DNA of 62,326 bases from a virus (taxonomy: Duplodnaviria > Heunggongvirae > Uroviricota > Caudoviricetes): the IMG/VR virus record IMGVR_UViG_3300047470_000520, one strand, 5' to 3'. Position 1 is the first letter of the stretch. The number at the start of each line of letters is the position of its first letter. This document shows, piece by piece, positions 2,739 to 24,421 of the stretch. Position numbers and translations under genes: made by a program. The notes beneath the pieces were generated by a model, which saw only the letters and a program-made list of their open reading frames with translations, searched no databases and was not told the DNA's origin.

Positions 2739-2759
2739 GCATCAGAAGGAGTTACGGTT

Positions 2760-3221: not shown

Positions 3222-3584
3222 ATGCAGCAAGAAAAAAATCAGTTCGTGATCAGGGCATTGATCTTCAGGGAGCACTCTGGATATGAGGACGTTCTTTCCT
3301 CACCGACACTGGGTGATGTACTAGAAAAATTCTCGGACATGATCAAAAAACAGAGCACGTACCATTCGTTGGGTGCGGAGATATTTGGCTTTGAGCTGCA
3401 CGGAAATGGAAAGCACTTGATGGATTTTCATGCTTCTCATAAAGGTCGCAAGGTAGAGATCACCTGGAAAGATACGGAGTTTCACATCGTGGATCACCGG
3501 CTGCTCAATGCTCTAAGCACAACCTTTCCAGAGCAAGCAGGACTGCTGAAAAGTAAGGCGCTCGAGGAAAGCCTCGGTCTATGA
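3222..3584 (+). CDS. Family A divergent member (LEESLGL)
   Basis: 120 aa; retains LLNALSTTFPEQ...KSKALEESLGL; GAGGAG RBS. Confidence 0.8.
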   Translation: MQQEKNQFVIRALIFREHSGYEDVLSSPTLGDVLEKFSDMIKKQSTYHSLGAEIFGFELHGNGKHLMDFHASHKGRKVEITWKDTEFHIVDHRLLNALSTTFPEQAGLLKSKALEESLGL

Positions 3585-3608: not shown

Positions 3609-4730
3609 CTACAGGCCCAAAGCATCCTCAAGGTCATGAACCTTAGACCATTGCAGCCCTAACGCCTTCTCAACCCTGTACAGCGCCTCACGGAAGTCTT
3701 TCTGTGACACGGGTGGCGGTGTGTCTATCAGCGATTCCAGCCTGGCTACGTTAGCGAGGATTTTGTCCTTTTCGGAATCGAACGTATTGATCGAGCGCAG
3801 GGCGTACTTCTTCATACCCTGAATGTATGTAGCATCCGCTCCCATTTGATCCAGGTTCCATTTGAGCTTGGTGGTCACGCCTTTGCTGGCGATCACTTCG
3901 GCATGCGCAACCGGGTCAGAAAACAGGTAGATGTCTACACGCCAATTTCCAGCTGCATATTCATCATCTTTGAAGCACAGCGAAGCCTTGGCGATGGCCT
4001 GGTCAAGCGTCGGCGCACCCCCAATAAGGTAACGAGCATTGAGTGCGGTGAGCACGATGTCGATGCGGTACTGCTGGTGAAACCGATCATCCCTCAGCCA
4101 TTTCTGCTTTACGTCACTGAAGTGGTAGGTATCACCGTTTTTTGACCGGGTTTGGAATTCCTCTCTGACGCTGTCCGGCAGGGTTATCGCCGGGCCGGTG
4201 GTTTCGAGCAGGTCTTGAAGGCAAGCATCGTGAACATTCAAGAAGTATTGAAGGAGGGCTTCCTGCTGGTCGGGGGCTGAATCGTTGTAGAGGGTGGCGA
4301 CTTTTGCCCACTGAATGTTCTTGGTCGTATAAGCATGGAACATCAGGTAGGTCTGCAGTTGGTCGCTGGTATAAGGCCCGCAGTCATTTTCCTCATCTAC
4401 GACAAAGCTTGATGCCTTTCGGAAGGCGAGCGCCTCAAGGTCGGCTTTTGTCCTGATGTCAGTGTCATAGAGGTTTGGCTTGAGCAGTGCGGTAATGCCC
4501 TCGAAGGTCTTATCACTCATGGCCAGGATTGGCGCCATATGCTCATTGCGGACACTCGCAGGAAAATCGAAGTAGTCACTGGCCATCTGGTTGTATGAGT
4601 CGACGTCAGGCGCCATGGCCTCGCCGGTAGCGTCAGTGAACCCGGCAAAGTCCTTGTGGAACATTACGTTGATAAAGGGGTAGTCATTGAGGCTGGGTGG
4701 CTTCAGGATGGCAGGGCGCAGGGCGGTCAT
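3609..4730 (-). CDS. Family B hypothetical protein (WSKVHDLEDALGL)
   Basis: 373 aa; PPSL..YPFI N-terminus and W..VATLYNDSAPDQQEA core. Confidence 0.9.
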   Translation of the reverse strand: MTALRPAILKPPSLNDYPFINVMFHKDFAGFTDATGEAMAPDVDSYNQMASDYFDFPASVRNEHMAPILAMSDKTFEGITALLKPNLYDTDIRTKADLEALAFRKASSFVVDEENDCGPYTSDQLQTYLMFHAYTTKNIQWAKVATLYNDSAPDQQEALLQYFLNVHDACLQDLLETTGPAITLPDSVREEFQTRSKNGDTYHFSDVKQKWLRDDRFHQQYRIDIVLTALNARYLIGGAPTLDQAIAKASLCFKDDEYAAGNWRVDIYLFSDPVAHAEVIASKGVTTKLKWNLDQMGADATYIQGMKKYALRSINTFDSEKDKILANVARLESLIDTPPPVSQKDFREALYRVEKALGLQWSKVHDLEDALGL

Positions 4731-4787
4731 TGAGTGTGTCCTTGTACTGGCATGCCTTCATTATCCAGGCTGAGCATCCGTACACAC

Positions 4788-4814
4788 AAGAAAGCCAGCC
4801 GGGGCTTTTCTTTT
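4788..4814 (-). terminator. Intrinsic terminator-like hairpin between two family B genes
   Basis: AAGAAAGCC-agccg-GGGCTTTTCTT inverted repeat with A/T flanks. Confidence 0.5.
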
Positions 4815-4903
4815 GAGGCCAAAGCGACTGAGCTTCTTTCTAAGTTATTGTTTTTAAACGACTATGGTGAATTATGGTAAATTATAGAGTGATTATAGAG
4901 CGA

Positions 4904-5935
4904 CTATAGACCCAGGGCATCCTCGAGCTTGCTGACCTTGCTCCAGGACACACCAAATTCCTTTTCTGCGGCGAACAGGGCTTTCTCCAAACGTTCTTTG
5001 AGGGCCGGCGAGCCGGTTTTTTCAGTGTTCCACTGAAGCTTGATAGGGAGCTCTGGCTTGAACTCGCCAATCATCGAGTTGTACCTGCCATTGACCTCCG
5101 CCGAGGCAAAGCCATTACCTTCATGCCCGATAGACACCGACTGAATGGTCTTAGCGTTAGGGTCAAGGGCAAAGCGTGTCGCGTAAGCAACGGCCTCTTC
5201 CATCGTTCTGGCGGTTGCAATGGGGTATTGAGCGCCGCCATTTTTCCGTTCGAAACCAGTCACAGTGAAATTCAGGATCATGTTCGAGTCCTTAACAAAC
5301 CTTCCCCTCAAATCATCGTAGGTGCACGGTTTGCCATCAATCATCTTGGATTCCAGTACGGGCACCAGGTTTGCGGGTAAAGGCTCTGGCCCCTTCATCT
5401 CCAGCAGGTCTTCAAGCGAACGATTCAGGCAGCGGATGAAGAATTGGTGGATGGCTTCTTGTTGGTCAGGAGCGGATTCGTTGTAAAGGTCAACGACATG
5501 CCTCCAATCAACGTAGATTTCTCCTTTGGCGTGGTACAGCAAGTACGCCTGTGTTTGTTCAAGGCTCGCGCCATCAATGGCCGGCTGCCAGTCATCCTCG
5601 TTTACATCTGGATCTTCAGTCGTAGCGGCGACGACGAGGTCATCCCTGGTTTTTATATCAACGCCATTAATCTCGTAGCCAAAGCTGCCAATGAGCGCTC
5701 CAAACGTCGCATCGCTCATCGCGGCCAGCGGGGCCGTGTGCTCTGGATTGATTGAAGATGCCGGGTAGAAATGCTGATCACCGTATACCTCGTCATCAAA
5801 GTTCCACTCTTCCTCGGACTTACCGTAAGGAATCTGCACGTCTCCTTCAAATTTTCGGGAGTCATACAGCATGTAATTGATGTATTGGTAAGCGCTCAAT
5901 AGCGGCGGGGTGAGCTTGGCAGGTCTAGGCATCAT
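4904..5935 (-). CDS. Family B hypothetical protein (WSKVSKLEDALGL)
   Basis: ORF track gives 4904..5989; start moved to MMPRPAKLTPP (5935) to match paralog N-termini. Confidence 0.9.
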   Translation of the reverse strand: MMPRPAKLTPPLLSAYQYINYMLYDSRKFEGDVQIPYGKSEEEWNFDDEVYGDQHFYPASSINPEHTAPLAAMSDATFGALIGSFGYEINGVDIKTRDDLVVAATTEDPDVNEDDWQPAIDGASLEQTQAYLLYHAKGEIYVDWRHVVDLYNESAPDQQEAIHQFFIRCLNRSLEDLLEMKGPEPLPANLVPVLESKMIDGKPCTYDDLRGRFVKDSNMILNFTVTGFERKNGGAQYPIATARTMEEAVAYATRFALDPNAKTIQSVSIGHEGNGFASAEVNGRYNSMIGEFKPELPIKLQWNTEKTGSPALKERLEKALFAAEKEFGVSWSKVSKLEDALGL

Positions 5936-6209
5936 GAAATCCTTGGTAGTGCATAGCCCATTATCCGTCTGGAGACGAAGTGGCGACAACGCTTCGCTAT
6001 GGCTTAATGCACAGAACCGCGCCCAGGTGCTGTGCCGCGATGAAGGAGGGATGTGTAGCGGACATTTGCCATCGCTTGGGATGGCTGATGGTTACCTGTA
6101 TGACAGCCGCCTGCTCGACAACCAGTAGGGCTTTAGCAGCAAGCCAGATTTCCATTTAAATCTACTCATTGCTACCATTTTTTGGATAAAAACAAGAATT
6201 GGTATTGAT

Positions 6210-6803
6210 ATGCAACATGTTTCGATTGGCCAGGCGAGCGAATTATTGGGCGTTGCGGTTTCCACACTGCGCCGGTGGGAACGGGAGGGTCGCTTGCGAC
6301 CCTCTTTTCGCACTTGCGGTGGTCATCGCCGCTACTCGATGATGGATCTGAATAAAGTCGCCGGCAAGGCGCTCTCCGATGAGCGAAAAGTCGTGGCCTA
6401 CGCCAGAGTCTCTTCTCACGGTCAAAAAGATGATCTGGAACGCCAGCGCGACCGCCTGGAACAGCACTGCAAGGCGGTTGGCTATGCCAACCTCGAGCTG
6501 CTGACCGACCTCGGCAGTGGCCTGAATTACCAGAAAAAGTCGTTCCGAAAGCTGCTTAAAATGATTGCGCTGGGTCAGGTCTCGACTTTGGTGCTGATGC
6601 ACAAAGACCGCTTGCTGCGCTTTGGCGCGGACATCATTTTCGACCTGTGTAAACTCAATCAAACCGAGGTGGTGATTCTCGAAGAACCCGCCTCAACAAC
6701 CATTGAAAATCGCCTGGTGGCCGATGTCATTGAATTAATGACCGTGTTTTCCGCACGATTATATGGCGCCCGCTCTCATAAGCACCGAAAACTCGCTGCA
6801 TAA
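6210..6803 (+). CDS. tnpA: IS607-family transposase TnpA (MerR-like HTH + serine recombinase)
   Basis: N-terminal SIGQASELLGVAVSTLRRWE...GGHRRY; catalytic YARVSS, DLGSGLN, DRLLRFG; C-terminal FSARLYG.RS. Confidence 0.95.
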   Translation: MQHVSIGQASELLGVAVSTLRRWEREGRLRPSFRTCGGHRRYSMMDLNKVAGKALSDERKVVAYARVSSHGQKDDLERQRDRLEQHCKAVGYANLELLTDLGSGLNYQKKSFRKLLKMIALGQVSTLVLMHKDRLLRFGADIIFDLCKLNQTEVVILEEPASTTIENRLVADVIELMTVFSARLYGARSHKHRKLAA

Positions 6804-6806
6804 TGC

Positions 6807-6837
6807 AATTGACATATAGTCAATTAAGCTCTATATA
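6807..6837 (+). promoter_or_regulatory. Sigma70-like promoter for tnpB overlapping a palindrome
   Basis: TTGACA (6809-6814), 17 nt, TATATA; AATTGAC-ATATA-GTCAATT inverted repeat over the -35. Confidence 0.5.
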
Positions 6838-6844
6838 TCAATGA

Positions 6845-8494
6845 ATGACAACAACCAATCCAACGCGCACAACGACCATTCAGACTCGCCTCCCGCGCAG
6901 TCCGGATCTGGCCGTCACCGCCGCGCTGGATGCCTATGCCGAACTCTATTCCAACCTTGAGAGGGTCGCGATAGCGACCCTCTGCAAGGGCGGAAAGCTC
7001 GACAAAAAAGCCTTTCTGAAAAACCACGGCATCACCGGACGTCAGTACAACGCGTTGACCCGCAGTGCCGAAGGGAAAATCGATTCGCAACTGAGCAATT
7101 TCGAAAACTACATCGCCGAATGCCGAGCCAAAAGCGCTGGCCAGAAATTGCGTATCGAGAAAAAACAGGCACTGATTAAAGATCCGAAAAACGCGGCAAA
7201 AGTTGGTCGCCTGCACCAAGCGATTCGCCAGCACAAGTCGCGAATCCAGCGGCTGGAGGCCCGCAAAGCGGACTTCGAGCGCCAGCTCGCTGCCAAGCGC
7301 CCGTCGATCTGCATGGGCAGCCGAAAGCTGTTTCTGCAGCAGTTCAACTTGGCCGAAAATAACTTGGAAAACCATGCTGAATGGCTTGAGTTATGGCGCC
7401 GCGAACGAAGCAGCCAATTCTTCGTTGTGGGATCAAAAGACGAAACCAGCGGCTGCCAGGGCTGCGTAATCCTGCCGCAGGCCGATGGCCTGTACACGTT
7501 GCGTGTTCGCCTGCCAGACGCGCTGGAGGCCGATCACGGCCAGTATTGCTACATCACGGACGTGGCGTTCAGTCACGACCGCCACTGGCTGGATCAGGCC
7601 ATCGCCTCGAACCAGGCCCGCAAGGTCATGCAGGCCGAGTACAACCAGCGAGCGAAGGATCCCGAATTTGTTGGGCCTCTGGACAAGTCCTCGCGCTTTC
7701 TCGAAGCCTTCGGCCAGGCCCTGAGCTACCGCTTTGTCCGCGATGAAAATCGCGGCTGGCGCGTGCTGGTGACCACCGAGCGCAGTGGCCAGGAGATCAG
7801 CACAGACCGAAAAAACGGCTCCATCGGTGTCGATCTGAATAACCATCACCTGTCCGTGACGGAGATCGACCGCCGAGGCATCAAGGTCGGCTGCGCCGAC
7901 CTGCACTTTCGTAACGACGAAGACATCACCAGTGCGAAGACTGCCACGGCCTTGCAGATGGCAGCGGTCAGGATCGTTGAACAGGCCAAAGTTGCCGGCA
8001 AGCCGATTGTGATCGAGGATCTTGACTTCACCCTCAAGAAGGCCAAGCTGCAGAAGCAGAAGCCGGGCGCAGCCCGGCTGAACAAGGTCGTCAGCGCCTT
8101 GGTTTACCGCAAATTTCGCTCGATCATCCAGACCCGCGCCTTCAAGGAAGGGGTCGAAGTGATCGTGGTAAACCCTGCCTACACCAGTCTGATTGGCCGG
8201 CTGAAATACCTGAATCAAACAGCCAACAGCGTTCACCAGGCCGCAGGCCTGGTGATTGCACGTCGCGGCATCGGTTTCAAAGACCATCTGCCTCGAGAAT
8301 GTTCAGTACCCGTTGTGCGCCGACTGTGTACTTTTCTGCCGCCAGTGGATGGCCGAAAAGATGAATCACAAAGTCTCAAAAAGTGCATGACTGTGTACGG
8401 TAATTGGTACACGTCAACGATGGAAGCCGCGAGGAAACGAGTCAAATTGTCCCGTCTCCGAAGGGCTCCCGAGCTCGAACAAATCCTGTTCTAG
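6845..8494 (+). CDS. tnpB: IS607-associated TnpB-like RuvC protein, long atypical form (549 aa)
   Basis: RuvC-I IGVDLN, RuvC-II IVIEDLDF and VNPAYTS are present. No CxxC zinc finger. RuvC-III region reads SVHQAAGLVIARR. Confidence 0.85.
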   Translation: MTTTNPTRTTTIQTRLPRSPDLAVTAALDAYAELYSNLERVAIATLCKGGKLDKKAFLKNHGITGRQYNALTRSAEGKIDSQLSNFENYIAECRAKSAGQKLRIEKKQALIKDPKNAAKVGRLHQAIRQHKSRIQRLEARKADFERQLAAKRPSICMGSRKLFLQQFNLAENNLENHAEWLELWRRERSSQFFVVGSKDETSGCQGCVILPQADGLYTLRVRLPDALEADHGQYCYITDVAFSHDRHWLDQAIASNQARKVMQAEYNQRAKDPEFVGPLDKSSRFLEAFGQALSYRFVRDENRGWRVLVTTERSGQEISTDRKNGSIGVDLNNHHLSVTEIDRRGIKVGCADLHFRNDEDITSAKTATALQMAAVRIVEQAKVAGKPIVIEDLDFTLKKAKLQKQKPGAARLNKVVSALVYRKFRSIIQTRAFKEGVEVIVVNPAYTSLIGRLKYLNQTANSVHQAAGLVIARRGIGFKDHLPRECSVPVVRRLCTFLPPVDGRKDESQSLKKCMTVYGNWYTSTMEAARKRVKLSRLRRAPELEQILF

Positions 8495-8601
8495 CTCGTA
8501 ACGTGCCTTAACCAATAGCTCCCAAAGCGCGTTCGGGGAGTGTCAAACCAACGATGAGTAGGTTTGATTAGCTAGTTAGGAACGGTATCGAGCAGATGTG
8601 G
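8488..8601 (+). ncRNA. Putative TnpB omega/reRNA scaffold 3' part plus flanking guide
   Basis: Nested stems in the IS right end (CTCCC/GGGAG, TCAAACC/GGTTTGA, CCTTAAC..TAGCT/AGCTAGTTAGG). The position matches known TnpB guide RNAs; the 5' end is not determinable. Confidence 0.45.
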
Positions 8602-8609
8602 TATCAGGA

Positions 8610-9134
8610 TCAGTAGGACAGGATCACTTCATTCATGAATCGAACCAAATCGCCACCGAGTTGCCGCTGCAAAATCTCTCGGGTTTTTGGGGTGTCCTGA
8701 GCTTTGTACGATGCGAAGCAGGGTTCGGTGAGCTTCTCTACAAATGTATGGGTTTTTGCTCTTCGCTTGAAGGATTTCAACTCGACAATCTCATCGCCCA
8801 TTTGGGGAATCGCAAACTCAAACCAGGACTCAACCGTATCGGGCTCTTCGAGCACGCTCTCTCCATAGTTCAGAGTGAGCGTATAACCAGCAGACTTAAG
8901 GGCATCCACGATCTGTTGTTGCTGGTCAACGCCGAGCTCGACCCGAGTCATTCCGCCATCGCCCATATTGCTGACCATGCCCAGCTTCTTGCCCTGGAAG
9001 TAGACCGTACACGACCATGCAATCCCACGATGCGTTTCGGTCTGGCTGAACGATTTGATCTGAACGTTGGCTTTTTTGGCAGCGTCAAGATTGTCGAATG
9101 GCTTCACGGGCAGTTCCTCATGGTTTCGCTTCAA
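8610..9134 (-). CDS. Hypothetical protein
   Basis: 174 aa ORF with protein-like composition; no motif recognised. Confidence 0.75.
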   Translation of the reverse strand: MKRNHEELPVKPFDNLDAAKKANVQIKSFSQTETHRGIAWSCTVYFQGKKLGMVSNMGDGGMTRVELGVDQQQQIVDALKSAGYTLTLNYGESVLEEPDTVESWFEFAIPQMGDEIVELKSFKRRAKTHTFVEKLTEPCFASYKAQDTPKTREILQRQLGGDLVRFMNEVILSY

Positions 9135-9185
9135 TGAGGGTTTATTCTATACTTAACTATGGAATCTAGCAACGTCTTTCCATAC

Positions 9186-9434
9186 TTATGTGTAGAATTT
9201 CAGAGCGCTGAGAATGAACGCATGCTTGTCATGAATGCCTTTGAGTCGGTTGTAGAACTGGCTCGTGGTCACGCCATGTTTCTCGGTTGCTTCTTTGGCG
9301 GTAAGGCCATGAACAAGGTGGTCGCGCAGGGCTGGAATGACCTTTTTGCCGCTGAATTTGGTGTCACTCAGCAGAAGTTCAAAATGTTCTTCGTCGACTT
9401 TCCCTGGTATCAAGGTCTGGGCCTCAGCAGCCAT
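9186..9434 (-). CDS. PapB/FocB/TrfB-like small HTH transcription regulator
   Basis: EEHFELLL...KVIPALRDHLVHG.TAKEA.EKHGV..SQFY matches the PapB-type pattern as recalled. Confidence 0.7.
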   Translation of the reverse strand: MAAEAQTLIPGKVDEEHFELLLSDTKFSGKKVIPALRDHLVHGLTAKEATEKHGVTTSQFYNRLKGIHDKHAFILSALKFYT

Positions 9435-9507
9435 CTGTAAAACTCCGAAAATGAATTAATATTCCACAGTTTACTATGGAATTTAGCGAGACAGCCACCG
9501 GTATTTG

Positions 9508-10527
9508 TTACAGACCCAACTCATCTTCAAGCTTCTGTGCCTTGTACCATTGCAGGCCAAGCTCTTTCTCTACGTCCAGAAGCGCTTCAGTAAACGCATC
9601 TTTGATCAGACCGCTATGCAGAGAGACTCTTTGGCTTTTGAGGCAGTATTCGCCGACGCTACTGATGCTCCAGACCAGCTTCATCGCAGATTGATGGCCT
9701 TTGATTTCGGCGATCTTGGCAAAGGCCAGGCGCTGACCGTTAACGGACATGCGGATGGCGATATGTTCTTTATTATGGCTGACGGTCTGAGCAAAGAGGG
9801 AGGCTTTCGCAATGGCAATGGCCAGGGTAGGGGCGCTGCCGACCAGACTGAGGCTTCCGTCCTGAAGAACACTTTTGATCACAAACTCCTGGTGGAACAG
9901 ATCATTACGCACCCAAGTCTGCTTAATGTCACTGAAGCAATAAGTCTGGCCATTCTCGACTCTGCTGAGGAATTTACTCTGGACGCTGTCTGGGATCGTG
10001 AAGCTGGGCGCCTGGATACTCAGCAGATTGACCAGGGAGCGATTCTTGAAGTGCTTGAAGTAGTCGCTGATCGATTGCTGCTGGCCAGGCGTGGAGGCGT
10101 TGTAGAGATCAGCCACTTGTCCCCAGTGGATGTTTTCGTCCACGTTTAGGCTGTGCAGCAGATAGGCTTCGAGCTGATCGGCCCGAAATTTCTCGCCGGT
10201 GTACAGGTCATAGTCCCTGGCGGCCAGTTTAGATAAATCGGATTTGCCGGTGACGGCGGTGAAGTTGTGATAGCTCAGCTTAAGGATACTGAAAAGGTCG
10301 ACGAAGGTGCTGTCATGCATCCCGGCCAGCGTTCCTGATTGAGCGATCTTGATTTTGCCAGGTGATGGGAAGTGTTTTGCCTCGAAGCCGGCGTCATCCG
10401 TTTCGTCGGGCCACTCTCTATCGCTGATGTGCTCAATGGCGATGTTGGTAGCGAGAAACTTGGCCGTGATGAACGGGTACGCGTCCAGGCTCGGCGGGGC
10501 GATGTGAGTTGGCAGCGTATCGGTCAT
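9508..10527 (-). CDS. Family B hypothetical protein (WYKAQKLEDELGL)
   Basis: 339 aa; closest by eye to 11733..12764. Confidence 0.9.
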   Translation of the reverse strand: MTDTLPTHIAPPSLDAYPFITAKFLATNIAIEHISDREWPDETDDAGFEAKHFPSPGKIKIAQSGTLAGMHDSTFVDLFSILKLSYHNFTAVTGKSDLSKLAARDYDLYTGEKFRADQLEAYLLHSLNVDENIHWGQVADLYNASTPGQQQSISDYFKHFKNRSLVNLLSIQAPSFTIPDSVQSKFLSRVENGQTYCFSDIKQTWVRNDLFHQEFVIKSVLQDGSLSLVGSAPTLAIAIAKASLFAQTVSHNKEHIAIRMSVNGQRLAFAKIAEIKGHQSAMKLVWSISSVGEYCLKSQRVSLHSGLIKDAFTEALLDVEKELGLQWYKAQKLEDELGL

Positions 10528-10584
10528 GCGGGATCCTTTGTTAAGTCGAAATATTAGTTAAATTGACGCACAGCCGGGCGGAGC

Positions 10585-11721
10585 CTACAAGCCAAGCTCA
10601 TCCTCAAGCTTGAATGCCTTACTCCACTGCAGGCCCATGGCCTTCTCGGTGGCAAACAGTGTTTTGATGAACTCGTTCCTTGAGATGCACGAGGGGGAAC
10701 GTGGGTTGAAATCCACCAGAGGCTTAAAACTCGTGGGATAACGAAGCGGTTTAGCCTGCTGATCTTGTGCCGAGGTTGTTTTATTCGGTTCCCAGGCCGA
10801 GTCATCCAGGTTCCAGCGAATCTTGCCTGGAGCCTTTATGTCTGAGGCAGAGGTCGGGGCTCTCAAGCGAGGCCCCGTATGAAACTCCCCGCCAGCCACG
10901 TAGTTACCACCTAGGAGCACGTCGAACGCATTCATGTTAATGGTCATGTTGAAGCCTTGCGCGAAGATCGATATTTTCGCGATGGCCTGGGCCAGCGTGG
11001 CTGCGGTAGCGATTAAGGAAGGTCTTTTGAAGAGGTGGTGAAATCCTTCAATTCGATATTGGTGATGAAAAATATCTTCACGCAGCCACTCCTGTTGCGG
11101 CTCGCTGAACAGCAGCACCTCGCCATGTTCGACCTTGCTATCGAACGTTTGTGTCAGGCTGGTCGGCAATTCGAACGTTGGCCCAGGGATTTTCATCAAC
11201 CTTTCCAGTGTGCGGTTTCTAACCTTGGAAAAATAACCGCAAATAGCTTCTTGCTGGTAAGGCGTTGATTCGTTGTAAAGGCTCGCCAGTAGTCCCCAAT
11301 GAATGTTTTTCGCCAGCGTCGAGTGATGCAGAAACGTGGTTTGTCTGGAAGCATTCTGGTGCCTTACTTTGTCATACCACCTGTCTTTTTCACCTGCGAG
11401 GGCAACCAGATCAGCCTTGGTGCGATAGGTTTCACCGGTCGAGAGCTCGGGCTTTAAGATGACGAACAACCGCTCAAACGTCTTATCGTTCATCGAGAGC
11501 AATGGCGCAATCCGATCTCTACGGATAATAACCGGCTCAGTGAAATAATGGGCAGTGAAAGCCTTATCTGAATACGGCTGTTCTAAATCCGTCTCGTTCC
11601 ACAAATGCCTGATGCCGATGTCATAGCGATGAAACAGGATGTCGATGAAGGGGTACGCCTCGAGCGACGGCGGAGCAAAGTAGTTGGGTATTTCGGTAGT
11701 CATCAGCAATTCCGAGTTCAT
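10585..11721 (-). CDS. Family B hypothetical protein (WSKAFKLEDELGL)
   Basis: 378 aa; closest by eye to 12806..13879. Confidence 0.9.
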   Translation of the reverse strand: MNSELLMTTEIPNYFAPPSLEAYPFIDILFHRYDIGIRHLWNETDLEQPYSDKAFTAHYFTEPVIIRRDRIAPLLSMNDKTFERLFVILKPELSTGETYRTKADLVALAGEKDRWYDKVRHQNASRQTTFLHHSTLAKNIHWGLLASLYNESTPYQQEAICGYFSKVRNRTLERLMKIPGPTFELPTSLTQTFDSKVEHGEVLLFSEPQQEWLREDIFHHQYRIEGFHHLFKRPSLIATAATLAQAIAKISIFAQGFNMTINMNAFDVLLGGNYVAGGEFHTGPRLRAPTSASDIKAPGKIRWNLDDSAWEPNKTTSAQDQQAKPLRYPTSFKPLVDFNPRSPSCISRNEFIKTLFATEKAMGLQWSKAFKLEDELGL

Positions 11722-11732
11722 TTCATCGAAGG

Positions 11733-12764: not shown

Positions 12765-12805
12765 TTAATTCATTGTAAGTGGTTGAATTGACGCACCGCC
12801 AGGCT

Positions 12806-15060: not shown

Positions 15061-16211
15061 AAGCCCAAAGCGTCCTCAAGCATGTGCACCTTGCTCCACT
15101 GCAGGCCAAGGGTGCGCTCGACCGACAAAACCGTCTTGATGAAGTTGTCTTTCGAGTCGTGCGAGGCCGCTGCGATCTTTCTGCACATTTCGCGATGTTC
15201 CTGCTCAAGCGGCTCGCTGGAAATTTGATTTCCATATTTTATCGTACCGGCCAGGTGGTCACGGAGATCTATCAGATTTGCGCTATCAATGCCGGCTTTC
15301 TGAAAATCCCATACCAGCTTTTTGTGGTCGTTTTCAGAGAAGTCTTTGTTGTAGGTTCGAACCCCGGAGTCCTCTACGTCAGCGATGGCGACTGTTTCAT
15401 CGAGATGGTGAATCAAGATCATGTTGCCAGGGCACAAGGCATTTGATGCCTCGGCGAAAAGGCTGGTCAAGGCAATCACCTGCTTGAGCGTGGGTGCTGT
15501 CGTGACCAGAAGGCCGGGCTCGGTACTGCCTTTGTTCGTGATGGTGGCGCGATAAATTTGGTGGAATTTCGCTTCTTTGAGCCACTGCTGCTCAACGTCG
15601 CTGTAAAGCAACGTCTCGCCATTTTCAATCTTGGCGTCGACGGGCTCACGCAAAGAATGAGGTAACTCCATGGCCGGGGCCCGCGTGGCAAGCATCGATT
15701 CCAGTTGGCGGTTCAAACAATTGAGGAAGAACTGATTCAGAGCCTCTTGTTGGTCGGCAGGCACCTGGTTGTACAGATTCACCAGGTCTCCCCAATGGAT
15801 AGGCTCTGGATAACTGGCTTTGCTCAGCTGAAAACTGGCCATTTGTTCGAGGCTGCAAGGGGCCCACTTGGACTTTTCGTTGCGATTGTTGGATTCGTAA
15901 ACATCAACCACGAGAAGCTCGAAGTCAGTCTTTGAAGTGATGAATGCTCCAAACAATTTTGGTCGCAAAATATGGAGCAATCGATCCAATGTGAAAGCAT
16001 TCATGGCCTGAAGTGGCGCCATCTGCGAAGTATGAACGGTGCCAGGGGTTTTGAAGCAAGTGTCCTTGAAGACTCTGTCGAGGTTGTGCTTGTTGCTTGT
16101 ACCGTACGGGATATGTGCAATGCCGAATAATTGATGGCGAAACATCACGTCGATGAACGGGTAGGCCTCCAATGGTGGAGGGGTCAGCAGGGCAGGTCGT
16201 GTGGATGTCAT
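15057..16211 (-). CDS. Family B hypothetical protein (WSKVHMLEDALGL)
   Basis: 384 aa paralog. Confidence 0.9.
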   Translation of the reverse strand: MTSTRPALLTPPPLEAYPFIDVMFRHQLFGIAHIPYGTSNKHNLDRVFKDTCFKTPGTVHTSQMAPLQAMNAFTLDRLLHILRPKLFGAFITSKTDFELLVVDVYESNNRNEKSKWAPCSLEQMASFQLSKASYPEPIHWGDLVNLYNQVPADQQEALNQFFLNCLNRQLESMLATRAPAMELPHSLREPVDAKIENGETLLYSDVEQQWLKEAKFHQIYRATITNKGSTEPGLLVTTAPTLKQVIALTSLFAEASNALCPGNMILIHHLDETVAIADVEDSGVRTYNKDFSENDHKKLVWDFQKAGIDSANLIDLRDHLAGTIKYGNQISSEPLEQEHREMCRKIAAASHDSKDNFIKTVLSVERTLGLQWSKVHMLEDALGL

Positions 16212-16235
16212 CGATGGCTCCGTTTCTCGTAATTC

Positions 16236-17354
16236 TTAAAGGCCCAGGGCATCTTCGAGCATGAGTACCTTGCTCCACTGAACGCCGAGAGCCCGCTCCA
16301 CTGACAGCACCGCCTTGGTAAAGGTCTCGGGCGTATCGCTTGAGCGGGAATGGATGCGTCTGCAGAGTTCTCGGTGTTGCTGCTGAAGGCCTTCACGAAG
16401 CTTTGGACTGCAATTCTCGATCTGCGTCACCAGGTTGTCACGTATGGTTTCCTCATGCCCGGTGTGCGCCCCTACATCCTTAAAATCCCACACAAGCTTG
16501 TATTGGTCGTTTGCGGGAACAATGTCTGAGTAGGCAATATCATCGGTATTATGGCGAATGGTGATGCGATTTACAGTAGATTCCGAACGCACTCCCTGGG
16601 TAAAAAGCGTTGCGAAAGCAATCGCTTGATCAACAGTCGGTGCGGTTGCCACCAGTAGCTCGGGGTTGGCGCTCCCCCTGTTTTTGACAGTGACGCTGTA
16701 AACCTGTTGCAGTGCTGCCTCGTTAAGCCATTGCTGCTCAACCTCGCTGTAAAAGAAGGTTTCACCATTATCGATCTTTGTGTCGAATGTCTTACGCAGT
16801 GACTCAGGCAGCGTGAGGTCATGGGCCGGAGTGGCAAGAATTACATCCAGCTGACGGTTAAAGTTTTTCAGAAAAAACTGGTGAAGGGCTTCCTGCTGAT
16901 CGGGCGCGGAGTTGTTGTACAAATCCACCATCTGACCCCAGTGAACAGGCTCGGTAAGAACGGCCTTGTACATCTGATAGCTGACCATTTGTTCGAGGCT
17001 GGAGGCATCTATCCTGTCGCCGATGCTGTCTATGTGGCTGTCGTAGGCCTGAAGCGCTTTCTGATCCAGGGCCGCTTTAGTATCAATGATCTCGCTCCAT
17101 ATTTTTGGTTTCAAAACATAGAGCAAACGATCTAACGTGGCTTCGGTCATGGCCTGGAGCGGGGCCATTTGCTCGACGCTAATGCCCTCAAGAGGGAAAT
17201 AGTTTTGGCTGTAAACGTTGTCGAGGTAGCAGCGGTTGCTCACGTCAAAAGGTGTGTGAGCGATGCCGAGCAGCAGACTGCGGAACATCACATCGATAAA
17301 CGGGTAGGCCTCCAGGCTCGGTGGATTGAGGCGTGCAGGTCTACTGGAAGTCAT
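16236..17354 (-). CDS. Family B hypothetical protein (WSKVLMLEDALGL)
   Basis: 372 aa paralog. Confidence 0.9.
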   Translation of the reverse strand: MTSSRPARLNPPSLEAYPFIDVMFRSLLLGIAHTPFDVSNRCYLDNVYSQNYFPLEGISVEQMAPLQAMTEATLDRLLYVLKPKIWSEIIDTKAALDQKALQAYDSHIDSIGDRIDASSLEQMVSYQMYKAVLTEPVHWGQMVDLYNNSAPDQQEALHQFFLKNFNRQLDVILATPAHDLTLPESLRKTFDTKIDNGETFFYSEVEQQWLNEAALQQVYSVTVKNRGSANPELLVATAPTVDQAIAFATLFTQGVRSESTVNRITIRHNTDDIAYSDIVPANDQYKLVWDFKDVGAHTGHEETIRDNLVTQIENCSPKLREGLQQQHRELCRRIHSRSSDTPETFTKAVLSVERALGVQWSKVLMLEDALGL

Positions 17355-17468
17355 CGGGGCGATCCTTGTGCGAGTGTCTTATGAGTATGGGGAATGAGCC
17401 AGGTTTCGAGCAAGGTAGCCGCTGCGCTGGGCGCAGCAAAGAGGCGATCATCTCGGAATGCGGCCCGA

Positions 17469-18494
17469 CTAGAGCCCAAGCTCATCCTCAAGCTTTTGCA
17501 CCTTGCTCCATTGCAGGCCCAGCAGCTTTTCGGTCTCAAGAAGTGTTTTAAAGAACTGCTGATTGGTGATTTCGTCGGTTCCGGCTTTTTCGCGATCCCA
17601 ATTCAGCTTCGCCGGAAGCTCGATGTGAGGGATTGGCTTTGACCACATATCCTTGCTCTGAATCCCTGCGACGGCCAGTACCTTGCCCATGTACTTGATT
17701 TCAATCTTGCGGATGACGTCATTGGAGTCGATGTTCTGGACGTACAGCGAAGCCCTGGCTACCGCTTCTTTGAGCGTTGAGGCGGTAGCAATGCGCAGTC
17801 GACGGTCTACGGCGAGGAACTGTGAAATACCAGTGATCTGGAATTTATCGTTCAAGTCCGCATCTCGAAACCAGTGCTGGTCGATCTCGCAGAAGGCGTA
17901 ATGCTTGCCATCTTGCGCATGTATTTCTAGATCCTGGGTAATAACAGTGGGTAATTCATGCTGAGGGCCAGGCACCGCGAGCAGCACATCAAGCGGCCTA
18001 TTCAGGCAGTGGGTGAAAAACTGGTTGACGGCGTGTTGCTGGTCTTGAGCGAGGCCGTTGAAGAACTCGGCCAGCTCGATCCAGTGCGGGTTCATATCCT
18101 GTTTTGCGTGATGAAGCAGGAAACTCTGTAGCTGATCAAGGCTGGAGTCTTCAGTGCTGTAATCATCATCGGGATCTTCCATCTCTTGGATGGCGACGTT
18201 GATCAGGTCAGTTTTTGACTCGATCAGCGTTTCGCGGATGATCACGCCCAGGATCGAGAATAGACCGGCACCAGTTTCATCAGACATCGCCGCCAGCGGT
18301 GCCATCTGCGCCGGGCCAACATCCTTGGCGCAGTAGAAGTGATTGTGAGAGAAATCAAAGTCCTCAAATCGATAGGGATTATCTCGCTGCTGATGGGCGA
18401 TCCCGGATGCATAGCCCGGTGATTCACGAAAGACCATGCTGATGAAGTGAAAAGAGGAAAGGCTCGGCGGTTCTATGCGGTCAGGCTTTGGCAT
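17469..18494 (-). CDS. Family B hypothetical protein (WSKVQKLEDELGL)
   Basis: 341 aa paralog. Confidence 0.9.
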   Translation of the reverse strand: MPKPDRIEPPSLSSFHFISMVFRESPGYASGIAHQQRDNPYRFEDFDFSHNHFYCAKDVGPAQMAPLAAMSDETGAGLFSILGVIIRETLIESKTDLINVAIQEMEDPDDDYSTEDSSLDQLQSFLLHHAKQDMNPHWIELAEFFNGLAQDQQHAVNQFFTHCLNRPLDVLLAVPGPQHELPTVITQDLEIHAQDGKHYAFCEIDQHWFRDADLNDKFQITGISQFLAVDRRLRIATASTLKEAVARASLYVQNIDSNDVIRKIEIKYMGKVLAVAGIQSKDMWSKPIPHIELPAKLNWDREKAGTDEITNQQFFKTLLETEKLLGLQWSKVQKLEDELGL

Positions 18495-18558
18495 GGCAGG
18501 TATCCAGGTGGTCTCTCTAAATTATCTGGCTTGAGCACCACCTGGCGCAACGCAGGGC

Positions 18559-19599
18559 TTACAGACCTAGCGATTCTTCAAGATACCTCCCCTTGGAGCT
18601 CGTCAGGCCAAGGGCCGCTTCCGCTCGAAAGAGCGAGGCTTCAAAGGTGCGGATGGACATACGGTGAGGTTCCTGGTCTGCTCGCGCCGTAAGCTCACGG
18701 CTCCAGGTGATTTTGGCCACCTCAGGGGTGTGGTGGTAAACCGGTTCGCCACCCCTTCTTGGGATTGGAGTGTACTCAATCTCACCTAGCATGAATGGCG
18801 ACCCATCAAGCATCAGCATGACTTTGCTCATGAAGGGGTACTGCAGCCGCCTGGACATATCAAAGCCTTGCGGAAATGGAAAGCGCTTGCTCGGAAGCTT
18901 CAGGAACGCCCAGGCTTTTGCAATGGCAATCTCGGGAGTGCCAGCGCTGCCTACAAAGTGGTTGATCTGATTCTTGTCGCGGCGAATGACGATGCTGAAC
19001 TGTCGGCAGAAATCAGTTTCAGGCACAGGGGCTTTGGCCAGGTCGCAGTTGACCATGCGCCGGCCATCAAGCTCGAAAGACGCTGTTTTTGACCGCAAAT
19101 CCTCCGGCACTGCGAGATCAGGGGCCTTGTTGTCCATCAGCTTGCGTAGATTGAAGCCAAGGCAATACTTGAAAAAACCTTTGACGGCCTTTCTCGATTC
19201 AGGATCCATCTCGTTGTACATCTCGGCCAGTGAACGCCAATCGATGTTTTTGGATCTCTCTGCCATTTTCAGATGGAATGAGCTGCGCTGGTCACGGGTG
19301 TGTGCGTCGAACTGGGAGATATCCATGACCGAAGCATCATCCGCCAGCGCGTCCAGGTCTTCTGGGGTACGAATGTGCACGCCGCGATGGAAGGGCTTGA
19401 GGATCGCGAACAATGGAATGAACACCTCACGGGGCAACCGGCAGCCGTACATCTCCTCGGCAAAGCTGATGTTGGACGGATCGAGGTTTTTCTGGATTAT
19501 TGCTGAGCTGCTCGATCCAAAGAATACGGCGTAGATCCTGTCGATGTGGCAGTAATCATCAGGATGCGGTGTGCGGATGTGGCCTTGTGGCAAACTCAT
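18559..19599 (-). CDS. Divergent family B protein (SSKGRYLEESLGL)
   Basis: ORF track start is 19668; ATG 19599 (MSLPQG) has an AAGGA RBS. Retains IDWRSLAEMYN and the terminal motif. Confidence 0.85.
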   Translation of the reverse strand: MSLPQGHIRTPHPDDYCHIDRIYAVFFGSSSSAIIQKNLDPSNISFAEEMYGCRLPREVFIPLFAILKPFHRGVHIRTPEDLDALADDASVMDISQFDAHTRDQRSSFHLKMAERSKNIDWRSLAEMYNEMDPESRKAVKGFFKYCLGFNLRKLMDNKAPDLAVPEDLRSKTASFELDGRRMVNCDLAKAPVPETDFCRQFSIVIRRDKNQINHFVGSAGTPEIAIAKAWAFLKLPSKRFPFPQGFDMSRRLQYPFMSKVMLMLDGSPFMLGEIEYTPIPRRGGEPVYHHTPEVAKITWSRELTARADQEPHRMSIRTFEASLFRAEAALGLTSSKGRYLEESLGL

Positions 19600-19645
19600 C
19601 TTTGATCCTTTTCCTTCAATTGTCGTCAAACCGCCTGCGGTGCCT

Positions 19646-20719
19646 TTAGAGGCCGAGTGCATCCTCAAGATGGAATGCCTTGCTCCAGCTCACGCCGAGC
19701 AGCTTCTCGGTGGCGAACAGGGCCTTGCGAAAGCCTTGGTCGGTGAAGGGCTCCAATGTCTTCGCTGGGCCCCATTCCAGCCGGCAGTCACTTTCCGTGA
19801 TCGAGTCAGGCAGGGTCTTCAGATGTCGGCGAAGGTTGGCAATGGCCACCACCCTCGACGAGGTGTCGGTCTCGAAGTAGATGCACACCGCGCCGGATGT
19901 TTGCTTTTGGGGTTTGTCGATCACCTTCGGTTTACCGTCAGCGTCAAGAATAACGCCATTCTTACCGAGGGTGTAGGCGGTTGCCCTGGCGATAGCTTGT
20001 TCGAGAGTGCCGGCGTAGGCGATCACCGTGGGCTCTTGGGAAAATGACAGGGTCATGGTGACTTTGAACTGACGATGAAACCGGTCGTCACGCACCCAGT
20101 CCTTGGCGATGTCGCAGTGCACATACACGTCGCCATCGATTTCTTTGGTCTTGGTCGACAGCAGTGCCTCTGGCACCTTCATGTCGGGGGCTGCGCTCAT
20201 GAGCTCTTCCAGGCCAAAAAGCCGGAGGTTCACAAAGAACTCGCTCATGGCATTTTTCTGGTCATCCGGGGCGGCGTTGTACAGCCTGGCAATCTTGCGC
20301 CAGTCGGCATGCTGTTCGAAATTGGCGCCGATCAGCAAGAAGACCTTGAGTTGATCGTCAGTGAAATTATCGTGATCCTCATCAATCACGAAATACTCAC
20401 GAAATCCCTTGCTGGATTGTCGAGTGATCTTGTCCAGGTCATTGGTATTCAGGATGGTGCTTCCGGAAATATTGGGCCGGATGACCGAAAGAATAGCCTC
20501 GAAGTTTTCTTGGCTGAGTGCAGCAATGGTGTATAGGACGTCATCGCCCACCATGCCTGGCCATTTTGGAAGGTTCTTGCCAGGTTCTTCATCGGTGCAC
20601 AGTAAGCCGCCGCTGCGCTTCCAGGTTACCGTAGAGATTTGTTTGGATTCACTGAATTTGCTGTCGATGAAAGGCAGCTGTTCTGGTAGTGGGACGGTAA
20701 TGAGCCGTGGTACAGACAT
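19646..20719 (-). CDS. Family B hypothetical protein (WSKAFHLEDALGL)
   Basis: 357 aa; P.PE.LPFID subgroup. Confidence 0.9.
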   Translation of the reverse strand: MSVPRLITVPLPEQLPFIDSKFSESKQISTVTWKRSGGLLCTDEEPGKNLPKWPGMVGDDVLYTIAALSQENFEAILSVIRPNISGSTILNTNDLDKITRQSSKGFREYFVIDEDHDNFTDDQLKVFLLIGANFEQHADWRKIARLYNAAPDDQKNAMSEFFVNLRLFGLEELMSAAPDMKVPEALLSTKTKEIDGDVYVHCDIAKDWVRDDRFHRQFKVTMTLSFSQEPTVIAYAGTLEQAIARATAYTLGKNGVILDADGKPKVIDKPQKQTSGAVCIYFETDTSSRVVAIANLRRHLKTLPDSITESDCRLEWGPAKTLEPFTDQGFRKALFATEKLLGVSWSKAFHLEDALGL

Positions 20720-20799
20720 GGAGGCAAGATCCTTATGGCGATTTAAATGATGGCGACTGACCGCCAGTCCCTACAAGTACAGCCGGCGCAATCTGCAGG

Positions 20800-21828: not shown

Positions 21829-21917
21829 GCGCGTAGCTCCTTAAGGCATGCATCCAGTATCGAGTATGAGCATTCGGCCCGGCAAATTGAAGTGCTCGGC
21901 GGGCGTGCTGCAACGGC

Positions 21918-22895
21918 CTACAGGCCCAGTGCATCCTCAAGGTGGTACACCTTGCTCCAGCTCACGCCGAGCAGCTTCTCGGTGGCATAGAGCGCCTTCT
22001 TGAACTCCCTGTCAGTGATTCTATTGCTGATGCAGTCGCTCCACTGCAATGAGTTGCTCAGAGACTTATGGTCAGCCTGGGCGATGAGTTGACCGTCCAG
22101 ATGAATCTTCACCCCGGTAGGGCGACCGCCAACAATCGTAAAGTTACCCAGTGCGTCGATACCCCTATTGAGCGGGTCGCCTTGGCTAATGGTGTAGAGA
22201 CTTACTTTGGCAATGGCTTCTTCAAGTGAGCCGGCATAGCCAACGGTGGTTTGATAGTCGCCCACTATTTCGGTTGATGAGACACGAAACTGTCGTTGAA
22301 ACGCATCATCTCTCAGCCAGGCACTGGCCATGCGGCAGTAAATGAAGGTCTCGTCGCCGTCCTTTCGGAGCTCATTTTTTGCAATCAAATCAGCCGGAAC
22401 CGGCAGATCAAATCCTTTTTGCATGAATAGTTTTTCAACGCTGGTGCGATGAAATTCCCAGAAAAACCAGTCGATGTGATTTTGCTCAGTCGACTTGCTC
22501 TCATTGAACAGGCGGGCCATGGAGCGCCAGTCAATGTGTTTTGGGAAAGTGGCCTGGTGCAGAAACAACGCCTGCAGATGCTCGTCGGTGTAACCCTCAA
22601 TATTCTCCTCTTCGAACTCCTCGACGAACGCGGCCTTATTGTTCTGGGTGCAGAGCACCAGCGCTTCCACGTCTTTGACGACAACCCCCTTGATCTCGGG
22701 CAGCAAGATCCCCAGAAGCTTCGACATCACCGTCGTGTCGACCGCATCGAATGCCTCAATCAGATCGTCACCAATCATCCCCGGCCAGTCTTCGACATCC
22801 CATTCTTCATCGACGACCTTGGTGGCGGCAAAGGCGCTGTCGATAAACGGCAGGTTCTCTGGCAGAGGAATTTCGAGAGCATTGGGTACGGGCAT
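21918..22895 (-). CDS. Family B hypothetical protein (WSKVYHLEDALGL)
   Basis: ORF track start 23072 overlaps the next gene; MPVPNALEIPLPENLPFID at 22895 matches paralogs. Confidence 0.9.
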   Translation of the reverse strand: MPVPNALEIPLPENLPFIDSAFAATKVVDEEWDVEDWPGMIGDDLIEAFDAVDTTVMSKLLGILLPEIKGVVVKDVEALVLCTQNNKAAFVEEFEEENIEGYTDEHLQALFLHQATFPKHIDWRSMARLFNESKSTEQNHIDWFFWEFHRTSVEKLFMQKGFDLPVPADLIAKNELRKDGDETFIYCRMASAWLRDDAFQRQFRVSSTEIVGDYQTTVGYAGSLEEAIAKVSLYTISQGDPLNRGIDALGNFTIVGGRPTGVKIHLDGQLIAQADHKSLSNSLQWSDCISNRITDREFKKALYATEKLLGVSWSKVYHLEDALGL

Positions 22896-22962
22896 GGGAT
22901 TGTCTTCGATCAATGAAAGATTTTTTACATTATTGACAATGAGTGCAGGAGGCCACAAACAG

Positions 22963-23967
22963 TCAAAGGCCCAGGGCGCCTTCCAGATCACGCACCTTGC
23001 TCCACTGAACACCCAGCAGCTTCTCGGTGGAATACAGCGCTGCCCGCAGCACCTTCTCGTCGATGGCCCCATTTTTAATGAGACTCCACTCCAGGCGGCG
23101 AGGCGTCGAGGTGTTCATGTGATTGATTTCAGCGCTGCCCAGCAGCGAATGTCTTCTGCGTAGAGTAAGTGTAAAAGGCCGGCCTCCAGCAGTATTCACC
23201 ATGCCAAAGGGGTCGACCTGGTTAGGCGCAGGATTGTTTTTGCTCATGGCATACAGGGTGGCCTTGGCAAACGCTTGCTCAAGCGTTCCTGAGAACCCGA
23301 GGAACGCATCCCCCTCGGTGGTGTAATGATCGCGGACACGCACCACAAACTGGCGATAGAACGCCTCCTCGCGCATCCAGGCATTGGCAATGTTGCAGTA
23401 AACAAAGCGCTCATCCCCGTCCTGGAGAACCTCGTCTTTTGAGTACAAAACAGACGGGACGGGCAGATCCATGGATTTTGTATTGAGAAGGTATACGACA
23501 CCTTTTTCACAGAATTCCCAGAAAAACCGGTCTATGGCGCTTTTTTGGTCGACTAAGGCCTCATTGAAGACATCGGCGACTTGGCGCCAGTCAATGTGCT
23601 CTGGAAAAGTGGCTCGCTGAAGGAGGTAGAGCTGAAGGTGCTTACTGTCGAGGCTGGCCAGGCTGTCGAGCTCGGATTCGCCTAGATAATCTTCCAGGCT
23701 CTCCCGGTCAATCCTGTCCAAGTCCTCAGCGCTTTGGATCAACTTTCCGCCTATTATCGGCTGCATGGCCTTAAACAGGCCCGATACCACCGATGAGGAA
23801 AGGCATGCGAAGGCAATGTCCAGATCAACTGCCACACCGGTGACCCATGCGTCCAGCCGCCAGTCATCATGCCGAACTGCTTTCGCAAAGGCACGGTCGA
23901 TCATCGGCAGGTTTTCAAGCGTTGGGGTTTCGATCTGACTAAGAACTGACATAGGCGAAATCCGCAT
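22963..23967 (-). CDS. Family B hypothetical protein (WSKVRDLEGALGL)
   Basis: 334 aa; first gene of the array in transcription order. Confidence 0.9.
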   Translation of the reverse strand: MRISPMSVLSQIETPTLENLPMIDRAFAKAVRHDDWRLDAWVTGVAVDLDIAFACLSSSVVSGLFKAMQPIIGGKLIQSAEDLDRIDRESLEDYLGESELDSLASLDSKHLQLYLLQRATFPEHIDWRQVADVFNEALVDQKSAIDRFFWEFCEKGVVYLLNTKSMDLPVPSVLYSKDEVLQDGDERFVYCNIANAWMREEAFYRQFVVRVRDHYTTEGDAFLGFSGTLEQAFAKATLYAMSKNNPAPNQVDPFGMVNTAGGRPFTLTLRRRHSLLGSAEINHMNTSTPRRLEWSLIKNGAIDEKVLRAALYSTEKLLGVQWSKVRDLEGALGL

Positions 23968-24050: not shown

Positions 24051-24242
24051 TTAGTGAAGGCGGGCCACTGGGGTGTATGGCTGAGTTGTTAATTGTGCAA
24101 TCAACGGCTGTTCAACTTTTGGAGCGTAGATTGGGGACAGTCTCATGACGTCGGCGCCCACGCTGATCTGGCTGAACACGAAGCACTGGAGAAAGATGCC
24201 GACAGCGAGGAGGAGAGTCAGGTTTTTCAGGTTGATGGACAT
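24051..24242 (-). CDS. Small protein with N-terminal hydrophobic segment
   Basis: 63 aa, MSINLKNLTLLLAVGIFLQCFVF. Confidence 0.55.
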   Translation of the reverse strand: MSINLKNLTLLLAVGIFLQCFVFSQISVGADVMRLSPIYAPKVEQPLIAQLTTQPYTPVARLH

Positions 24243-24421
24243 TGCAAACTCAGTTGGCGTAATTCGGTTTTTATATGAAAAACACCCCCGTCATGGAGGT
24301 GTTTTGGGATCTTGTTTGAGCGCGTGAATATTGATGCTAAATTGACAAAAAGTCAATCTTGAAAACGTGAGATTTCAGGTGTTTTCCGATGTGCGGTAGG
24401 AACTTACGACTGACCAAATGG

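Follow-up and report, generated by a model that had tools for sequence, protein, structure and literature searches.

Gene organisation of the array

The subject of this study is a tandem array of divergent paralogous genes, here called family B, that occupies positions 3609–23967 of a 62,326-nucleotide (nt) stretch of DNA (IMG/VR record IMGVR_UViG_3300047470_000520). The whole stretch is referred to below as the window and all coordinates are those of the whole stretch. Family B is built from a private front domain and a tail-bearing alpha/beta module that is common to a neighbouring family, family A, a relationship recognised here for the first time. The first-pass annotation, made from the letters of the sequence, had counted at least 16 paralogs, and open reading frame (ORF) listing and translation bear this out, with 15 complete minus-strand ORFs in the array and an N-terminal piece of 289 amino acids (aa) at positions 1–867. 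All of the copies in the window are intact. The number 16 is a lower bound; L001, a related contig of 1.28 Mb that was compared with the window together with a second contig, L003, carries further copies beyond the equivalent of window base 1. The genes of the array, and those that interrupt it, are as follows.

22963–23967, minus strand: family B copy 1, 334 aa, leading the run; nearest L001 relative at 4469–5461 (46% identity)
21918–22895, minus strand: family B copy 2, start ATG likely at 22895, about 325 aa; old duplicate lying outside the ortholog pair of copy 1 and L001
20800–21828, minus strand: family B copy 3, 342 aa; old duplicate of the copy 4 lineage
19646–20719, minus strand: family B copy 4, 357 aa; ortholog L001 5488–6549 (45% identity)
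18559–19599, minus strand: family B copy 5, start ATG likely at 19599, about 346 aa; ortholog L001 6596–7624 (59% identity)
17469–18494, minus strand: family B copy 6, 341 aa; ortholog L001 7633–8736 (64% identity; ratio of nonsynonymous to synonymous substitution rates, dN/dS, 0.14)
16236–17354, minus strand: family B copy 7, 372 aa; ortholog L001 8856–10004 (75% identity; dN/dS 0.16)
15057–16211, minus strand: family B copy 8, 384 aa; old duplicate of the copy 7 lineage, its stop overlapping the start of copy 9
13876–15060, minus strand: family B copy 9, 394 aa; 57% identity to copy 8 (synonymous divergence, dS, about 3), with an ATGA overlap with copy 10
12806–13879, minus strand: family B copy 10, 357 aa; ortholog L001 10001–11056 (68% identity)
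11733–12764, minus strand: family B copy 11, 343 aa; forms with copy 10 a two-gene unit, duplicated as copies 12 and 13
10585–11721, minus strand: family B copy 12, 378 aa; 52% identity to copy 10
9508–10527, minus strand: family B copy 13, 339 aa; ortholog L001 11114–12133 (84% identity; dN/dS 0.17)
9186–9434, minus strand: PapB-family small transcription regulator inside the array, 82 aa (PF03333, E 3e-16); 98.8% identity to the L001 copy, dS 0.25
8610–9134, minus strand: conserved 174-aa ORF beside the PapB regulator; 90% identity to L001 12506–13030, no Pfam match
5996–8583, plus strand: window-specific IS607-type insertion of about 2.6 kb, standing in place of 63 nt of L001
6210–6803, plus strand: serine recombinase TnpA of the IS607-type element, with resolvase and MerR helix-turn-helix domains
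6845–8494, plus strand: 549-aa TnpB-like ORF of the IS607-type element, with a weak Cas12f TNB domain match
4904–5935, minus strand: family B copy 14, start ATG likely at 5935, about 343 aa; ortholog L001 13162–14217 (49% identity)
3609–4730, minus strand: family B copy 15, 373 aa, used for structure modelling; L001 (77%) and L003 (72%) orthologs
994–3584, plus strand: family A, six genes of about 130 aa (994–1383, 1411–1845, 1870–2274, 2304–2738, 2760–3188 and 3222–3584)
1–867, minus strand: family B copy 16, N-terminal 289 aa, the rest lying past the window start; orthologs L001 17416–18600 and L003 4616–5800 (61% identity)

Internal ATG starts are near-certain for three of the long ORFs (4904–5935, 18559–19599 and 21918–22895, with ATGs at 5935, 19599 and 22895, respectively) and, when they are adopted, the apparent ORF overlaps vanish. 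Family B genes are spaced by 11–115 nt, two junctions being ATGA overlaps, and AAGGA-type (Shine-Dalgarno) ribosome-binding sites lie 8–14 nt upstream of most starts. A promoter-like site is present near copy 1 at 24008–23979; such sites occur no more often than chance, and scans for promoters and terminators revealed no enrichment over shuffled sequence. The run is interrupted twice, between copies 13 and 14 (5996–9507) and between copies 15 and 16 (994–3584). The IS607-type element splits copies 14 and 15 from the remaining run and may cut an operon. The PapB-family regulator and the 174-aa ORF are candidate regulators of the array and are far better conserved than the flanking family B genes (45–84%). 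Long plus-strand ORFs also occur antisense to family B genes (e.g., 9505–10149, 18974–19534 and 22449–22916); their apparent conservation in L001 mirrors that of the sense genes and they should not be annotated as genes.

Modular anatomy of family B

A 16-way alignment reproduced all four of the conserved blocks described in the first-pass annotation: PPxLxxYPFI near the N-terminus, a HWxxLAxLYNESxPDQQEAIxxFF core, an AxAPTLxQAIAKA helix and EKxLGLQWSKVxxLEDxLGL at the extreme C-terminus. Pairwise identities to copy 1 range from 23 to 38% and the maximum between any two window copies is 57%. Positions P12, W141, N149, F163, P185, A245 and W291 are near-invariant among 89 sequences, and a WxRxD motif is kept in distant subfamilies too. 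By type, these residues (P, W, N, F, A) are structural, and no catalytic residue set could be recognised among the conserved positions of the 89 sequences, in agreement with the absence of a catalytic motif recorded earlier. The proteins are soluble and mostly acidic, with isoelectric points (pI) of 4.7–6.9 and one at 8.8, that of copy 5, which is the most divergent copy and carries the tail LEESLGL.

AlphaFold modelling of copy 15 (3609–4730) at full length with 16 sequences yielded a mean predicted local distance difference test score (pLDDT) of 85 and a predicted template modelling score (pTM) of 0.81, and residues 1–294, modelled with 89 sequences, reached values of 95 and 0.91. Four parts are predicted: an N-terminal helical domain of about 180 aa (roughly residues 14–175); an alpha/beta domain with strands in 194–239, a helix at 242–252 and strands in 263–291; a variable insert of 0–60 residues, modelled as a helical hairpin in copy 15; and two C-terminal helices (pLDDT 78–93) that bear the tail.

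The second and fourth of these parts have a counterpart next door. In the family B profile, family A matches the final ~110 columns, namely the alpha/beta domain plus the tail; the alignment begins with the A.A.T..EAI helix, continues through strands that end in an invariant Trp and finishes with the tail. With window sequences alone, hhalign gave a probability of 79% (E 1.6e-5); deeper alignments of 101 family B and 17 family A sequences raised this to 91% over 100 columns (E 9.5e-7). Profile searching also revealed short stand-alone proteins that match the C-terminal module only (P0085, P0086, P0088 and P0090). Given this homology and the stand-alone proteins, family B consists of a private N-terminal domain fused to a tail-bearing module that also exists alone. 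A HicB-like antitoxin domain, suspected from the A.A.T..EAI motif, received no Pfam support in family A or family B.

No match to family B, at or near threshold, was found among the curated families of Pfam, NCBIfam, PADLOC and PHROGs or among PDB sequences. The first-pass annotation had proposed comparing AlphaFold models by Foldseek and had named a match to a characterised housekeeping family as the result that would undo its suggestion of an effector-like role; such a match was looked for in the curated families and in structure searches and none was found. Foldseek searches against PDB, AFDB-SwissProt and BFVD, and searches of the ESM Atlas by shape or features, gave no significant match for the family B models, and the alpha/beta domain, as modelled, bears a weak likeness to AcrIF9 (PDB 7c78, 7bb5, 7chr). 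For the N-terminal domain, no relative was detected in whole-model searches, and one structure search (VIA) was dominated by the helical-hairpin insert that is specific to the modelled member. The AFDB cluster matches were exclusively uncharacterised proteins, one of them auto-named 'GTP-binding protein', and these may be distant members of family B.

Age of the paralogs and selection

The array is collinear with both L001 and L003, and the collinearity includes flanking small ORFs, the PapB-like gene and the 174-aa ORF. The small ORFs upstream of the array (60–150 aa; 24051–29669, minus strand), which lack the tail and have no Pfam match, are syntenic with L001 1–4370 at 28–80% identity.

The first-pass annotation had also proposed a phylogeny of the paralogs across related plasmids and had pictured the array as an accordion fitted to an arms-race role. 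The tree resolves into one-to-one orthologs, with all of the duplications old. In the maximum-likelihood phylogeny, every copy of L001 has a single window copy as its partner (support near 100), and six extra window copies (21918, 20800, 15057, 13876, 11733 and 10585) branch outside the L001 pairs; one duplication event copied a two-gene unit. Because the extra copies fall outside the ortholog pairs, the duplications must be older than the split of the two plasmids, and from the tree, loss (or relocation) on the L001 side appears to account for the copy-number difference better than recent gain in the window lineage does.

Orthologs differ with dN/dS values of 0.14–0.28 (pairwise Nei-Gojobori estimates, with dS near saturation for several pairs). 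When computed by segment, dN/dS lies at 0.14–0.30 throughout, including the loops and the insert that are most different between paralogs. These low values, even in the variable segments, imply that each paralog preserves its own "variable" regions. The pattern is the signature of old specialisation and not of a current arms race. Of the earlier proposal, a diversified, effector-like, non-enzymatic family still fits; the arms-race accordion is contradicted by old duplications and purifying selection. A fast accordion was rejected on the grounds of synteny with L001, duplications that predate the plasmid split and the ortholog dN/dS range, and positive selection because the pairwise estimates were purifying everywhere.

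Synonymous divergence from L001 is itself uneven along the array (3609–19602), varying about seven-fold from 0.23–0.25 for the two embedded genes, through 0.5 for copy 13, to values of 1.3–1.8 in copies 10 and 6. Possible causes are mosaic ancestry or recombination of diverged plasmids with one another, or codon constraint that differs strongly between genes.

Occurrence on Pseudomonas megaplasmids

A profile search of 1.84 billion representative proteins detected only 91 clusters of family B. Neither family peptide patterns nor a back-translated tail pattern had a match when scanned against GTDB representative genomes, and megablast against plasmids was likewise without a match. The closest relatives lie on a 1.28 Mb metagenome contig and more distant members occur on contigs of 0.9–1.08 Mb, two of which are from Pseudomonas serbica and Pseudomonas sp. 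PLMAX. Members are also present on pPL1, a 1.17 Mb plasmid from P. silesiensis, where family B identity is about 30%. The window carries a Rep3 initiator and has a guanine plus cytosine (GC) content near 52–53%; that of plasmid pMPPla107 is 52.84% (Table 1, PMC6482414). One rhizosphere metagenome run contains nearly all of the window and others contain parts of it; these are DNA runs (rhizosphere, digester), with no RNA run listed among them. Judged by its relatives, the window points to Pseudomonas megaplasmids of about 1 Mb and of the pMPPla107 type, and family B appears to be extremely rare and, among the members traced, plasmid-restricted.

A C-terminal tail on unrelated families

The C-terminal sequence LE[DE]x[LM]GL closes 27 ORFs of the window, which belong to four families. 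The families that bear this tail in addition to family B are the following.

58247–61846: helical family of about 300 aa
54826–58250: pair of 541- and 573-aa proteins
994–3584, plus strand: family A, as listed above

Between the ~300-aa family and family B, the common sequence is confined to the last 14 residues. Within family B the tail is among the best-conserved segments (identity 0.6–0.9, dN/dS 0.14), with Leu at positions -7, -3 and -1 and Glu or Asp at -6 and -5. A [LF]xxDLG[LM] end is kept by nearly all of the 91 family B clusters, even by very distant subfamilies whose N-terminus differs, and variants in the very distant members include FSEDLGL, LEDDLNL, LGRDLGL and similar.

The same peptide occurs in pPL1. 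A degenerate DNA pattern retrieved a dozen ORFs ending in [ED]DLG[LMI], and none of 10 matches to a reversed-pattern control ended in this way. At least 11 pPL1 ORFs ending in [FL]x[ED]DLG[LMI] are unrelated to family B, mostly unrelated to one another and devoid of Pfam domains. Among the pPL1 family B members (L004 19899–22530 and L019), one has a C-terminal extension of about 150 aa. The presence of one C-terminal peptide on many unrelated proteins of deeply diverged plasmids argues for a tag that is read by a single conserved partner, and the tail is most likely, on this comparative evidence, a tag for one plasmid-encoded receptor.

Candidate receptors and the role of family B

Megaplasmids of the pMPPla107 type are reported to encode a Dot/Icm-like system that is required for transfer and for which no effectors have been identified (PMC3136466, PMC4105467). 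An IncI/Dot-Icm-type system is also carried by pPL1, with DotH, DotI, TraI/DotC, a DotB-like ATPase and thin-pilus genes, and with DotM encoded immediately upstream of a DotL-like coupling protein. A DotM ortholog (P0138) lies on a contig of 1,282,131 bp, and the syntenic array of L001 is likewise on a 1,282,131-bp contig. In the neighbourhood of the pPL1 DotM/DotL-like pair (L024, 1100000–1118000) we observed genes for several paralogs of housekeeping type, namely a 784-aa SecA paralog, a 449-aa FtsZ/tubulin homolog and a ParM-like actin, together with RecJ, the large subunit of a class I ribonucleotide reductase and a guanylate-kinase-like protein; it is conceivable that this SecA copy is another handler of tagged or untagged cargo.

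We propose that family B comprises megaplasmid-specific, soluble, acidic binding proteins, probably non-enzymatic, made up of three parts. The helical N-terminal domain of ~180 aa would be the working end, private to the family and kept by each paralog in its own version. The alpha/beta module of ~110 aa, which also occurs alone as the ~130-aa family next door, may serve as an adaptor, and the two-helix tail ending in LE[DE]xLGL-COOH would be a portable tag common to many unrelated orphan families. The likeliest receptor for the tail would be the DotL/DotM coupling complex of the plasmid's I-type/Dot-Icm-like type IVB secretion system, and the family B proteins would then be passengers delivered into the plasmid recipient, or another target cell, with each paralog binding a different partner. 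The analysis establishes the architecture, the common module, the age and conservation of the copies, the spread of the tail and the occurrence of DotL, DotM, DotH and DotI on related plasmids; we infer recognition of the tail as a tag, the role of the type IVB system as its receptor and the binding of targets by the N-terminal domain. The tight spacing of the genes leaves no room for paired immunity genes, which argues for passengers that are non-toxic. That family B proteins are non-enzymatic substrates of the plasmid's Dot/Icm-like system is the reading that we favour, although tentatively. We offer with greater reserve the broader idea that giant Pseudomonas plasmids possess a private protein-addressing system, in which a C-terminal LE[DE]xLGL, sometimes carried on the ~110-aa adaptor module, would mark much of their orphan gene content (the 27 ORFs of the window, and further families in relatives) and be read by a dedicated receptor.

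The signals of known Dot/Icm substrates lie at the C-terminus and abound in residues that are small and polar, hydrophobic or acidic, and DotM reads those signals that are Glu-rich (PMC9302130). The tail matches them loosely: it lies at the extreme C-terminus and is acidic and Leu-containing, yet it has a fixed consensus with predicted helices. Complex prediction for the tail with the cytoplasmic domain of DotM (P0138 residues 125–452) scored 0.00, with chain pLDDT values of about 30–37, and argues neither for nor against an interaction.

Several observations weigh against delivery by the secretion system. The type IVB genes expected on the same replicon were seen only in the relatives, and their co-occurrence with family B is uninformative, given that every known carrier is a megaplasmid of the self-transmissible type. 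The tail is near-fixed and helical in the model, whereas Dot/Icm signals are degenerate and presumably flexible. Furthermore, the Glu-rich E-block that defines the DotM-binding subclass of effectors is absent from the tail, which has two adjacent acidic residues only, and the two or three pPL1 family B members end in DDGL[AS][FL], unlike the other tagged proteins of that plasmid.

Some of these features would be better accommodated if the tail docked family B, and the other tagged families, on a plasmid-encoded cytoplasmic hub instead of a secretion system. Such a hub might be an AAA+ unfoldase or chaperone, a protease adaptor or a scaffold, and the proteins would act inside the plasmid-bearing cell, for example in tuning host physiology for a 1 Mb replicon. 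A near-invariant and confidently helical tail is more in keeping with recognition by a specific peptide-binding domain than with a loose secretion signal, and it ends in hydrophobic-x-hydrophobic-COOH, the type of terminus that is read by C-terminus-binding domains. Moreover, old paralogs under purifying selection are to be expected of housekeeping-like plasmid functions. However, nothing in the window resembles a peptide-binding receptor and no candidate hub was identified, and we regard docking on a hub as a serious but rather unlikely alternative.

A role in defence evasion, in which each paralog, injected or not, would act as an anti-defence protein or decoy and block or imitate its particular component of host immunity, has the old duplications and purifying selection against it in so far as it implies an arms race, and we consider it improbable. 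Still harder to sustain, and very improbable in our judgement, is the idea of contact-dependent toxins of a bacteria-killing type IV system: a conserved C-terminal element on unrelated families, with the ~110-aa module in families A and B, would parallel the logic of the XVIPCD domain of Xanthomonas X-Tfe effectors, but the proteins show no enzymatic or toxin motif and no Pfam match, pairing of toxin and immunity genes is ruled out by gaps of 11–115 nt or overlaps between copies, and the relatives have a type IVB system, equipped with an IncI-like thin pilus, and not one of the Xanthomonas type IVA.

Other genes of the window

Elsewhere, the window encodes a Pnkp-like kinase/phosphoesterase/RNA-ligase protein (780 aa) and a shorter phosphoesterase paralog (365 aa) at 33232–38302 (plus strand), an RNase II/R homolog at 52268–54223 (minus strand), the Rep3 initiator at 49560–50681 and a CNNM/CBS protein at 50746–51858.

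Implications

About three quarters of the genes of pMPPla107-type megaplasmids are hypothetical, and their Dot/Icm-like system is without known protein substrates (PMC3136466). A large block of these hypothetical genes now has a defined architecture and is seen to be old, conserved and specialised, and neither junk nor fast-evolving, and the common module and tag link it to many other orphan families. The present contribution lies in the modular anatomy, the age and one-to-one conservation of the paralogs, the extreme rarity of the family and its confinement to plasmids, and the persistence of the tag in distant relatives that bear DotL/DotM. The function that we infer for family B carries further consequences. 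If the receptor is the conjugation machine, then a conjugative type IVB system would have its first described effector repertoire, to which family B would belong, with proteins sent before or with a 1 Mb plasmid and preparing the recipient cell. If the tag is a secretion or sorting signal, the whole cargo set could be read from the sequence of any related plasmid, and a compact tag for protein delivery between bacteria would be available.

Comparison with known systems

Family B can be compared with the Dot/Icm effector repertoires of Legionella and Coxiella, since in both a good part of the coding capacity goes to orphan proteins that are numerous and frequently paralogous. As for those effectors, the replicon, in relatives of the window, carries genes of the DotL/DotM/DotH/DotI type and the putative signal is acidic and hydrophobic and lies at the extreme C-terminus (PMC9302130). 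The family differs from them in its near-fixed K..LE[DE]xLGL tail, helical in the model and without a Glu-rich E-block, and in that the machine is here a conjugation apparatus on a plasmid of soil and plant pseudomonads. Moreover, structure and family searches revealed no similarity in sequence or fold to any known effector.

The XVIPCD-bearing X-Tfe proteins of the Xanthomonas type IVA system provide a second parallel, in that a conserved C-terminal element of about 100 residues recurs on proteins without other relationship, where the coupling protein presumably reads it. In contrast to these, family B shows no XVIPCD homology (no Pfam match), lacks toxin domains and immunity partners and is associated with another class of secretion system, and the other tagged families have only their last ~14 residues in common.

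Family B also resembles the other tagged megaplasmid families, which likewise end in LE[DE]xLGL, are organised in tandem arrays and are restricted to these plasmids. Among these, only family A has more than the tail in common with family B, and the N-terminal domain is unique to family B.

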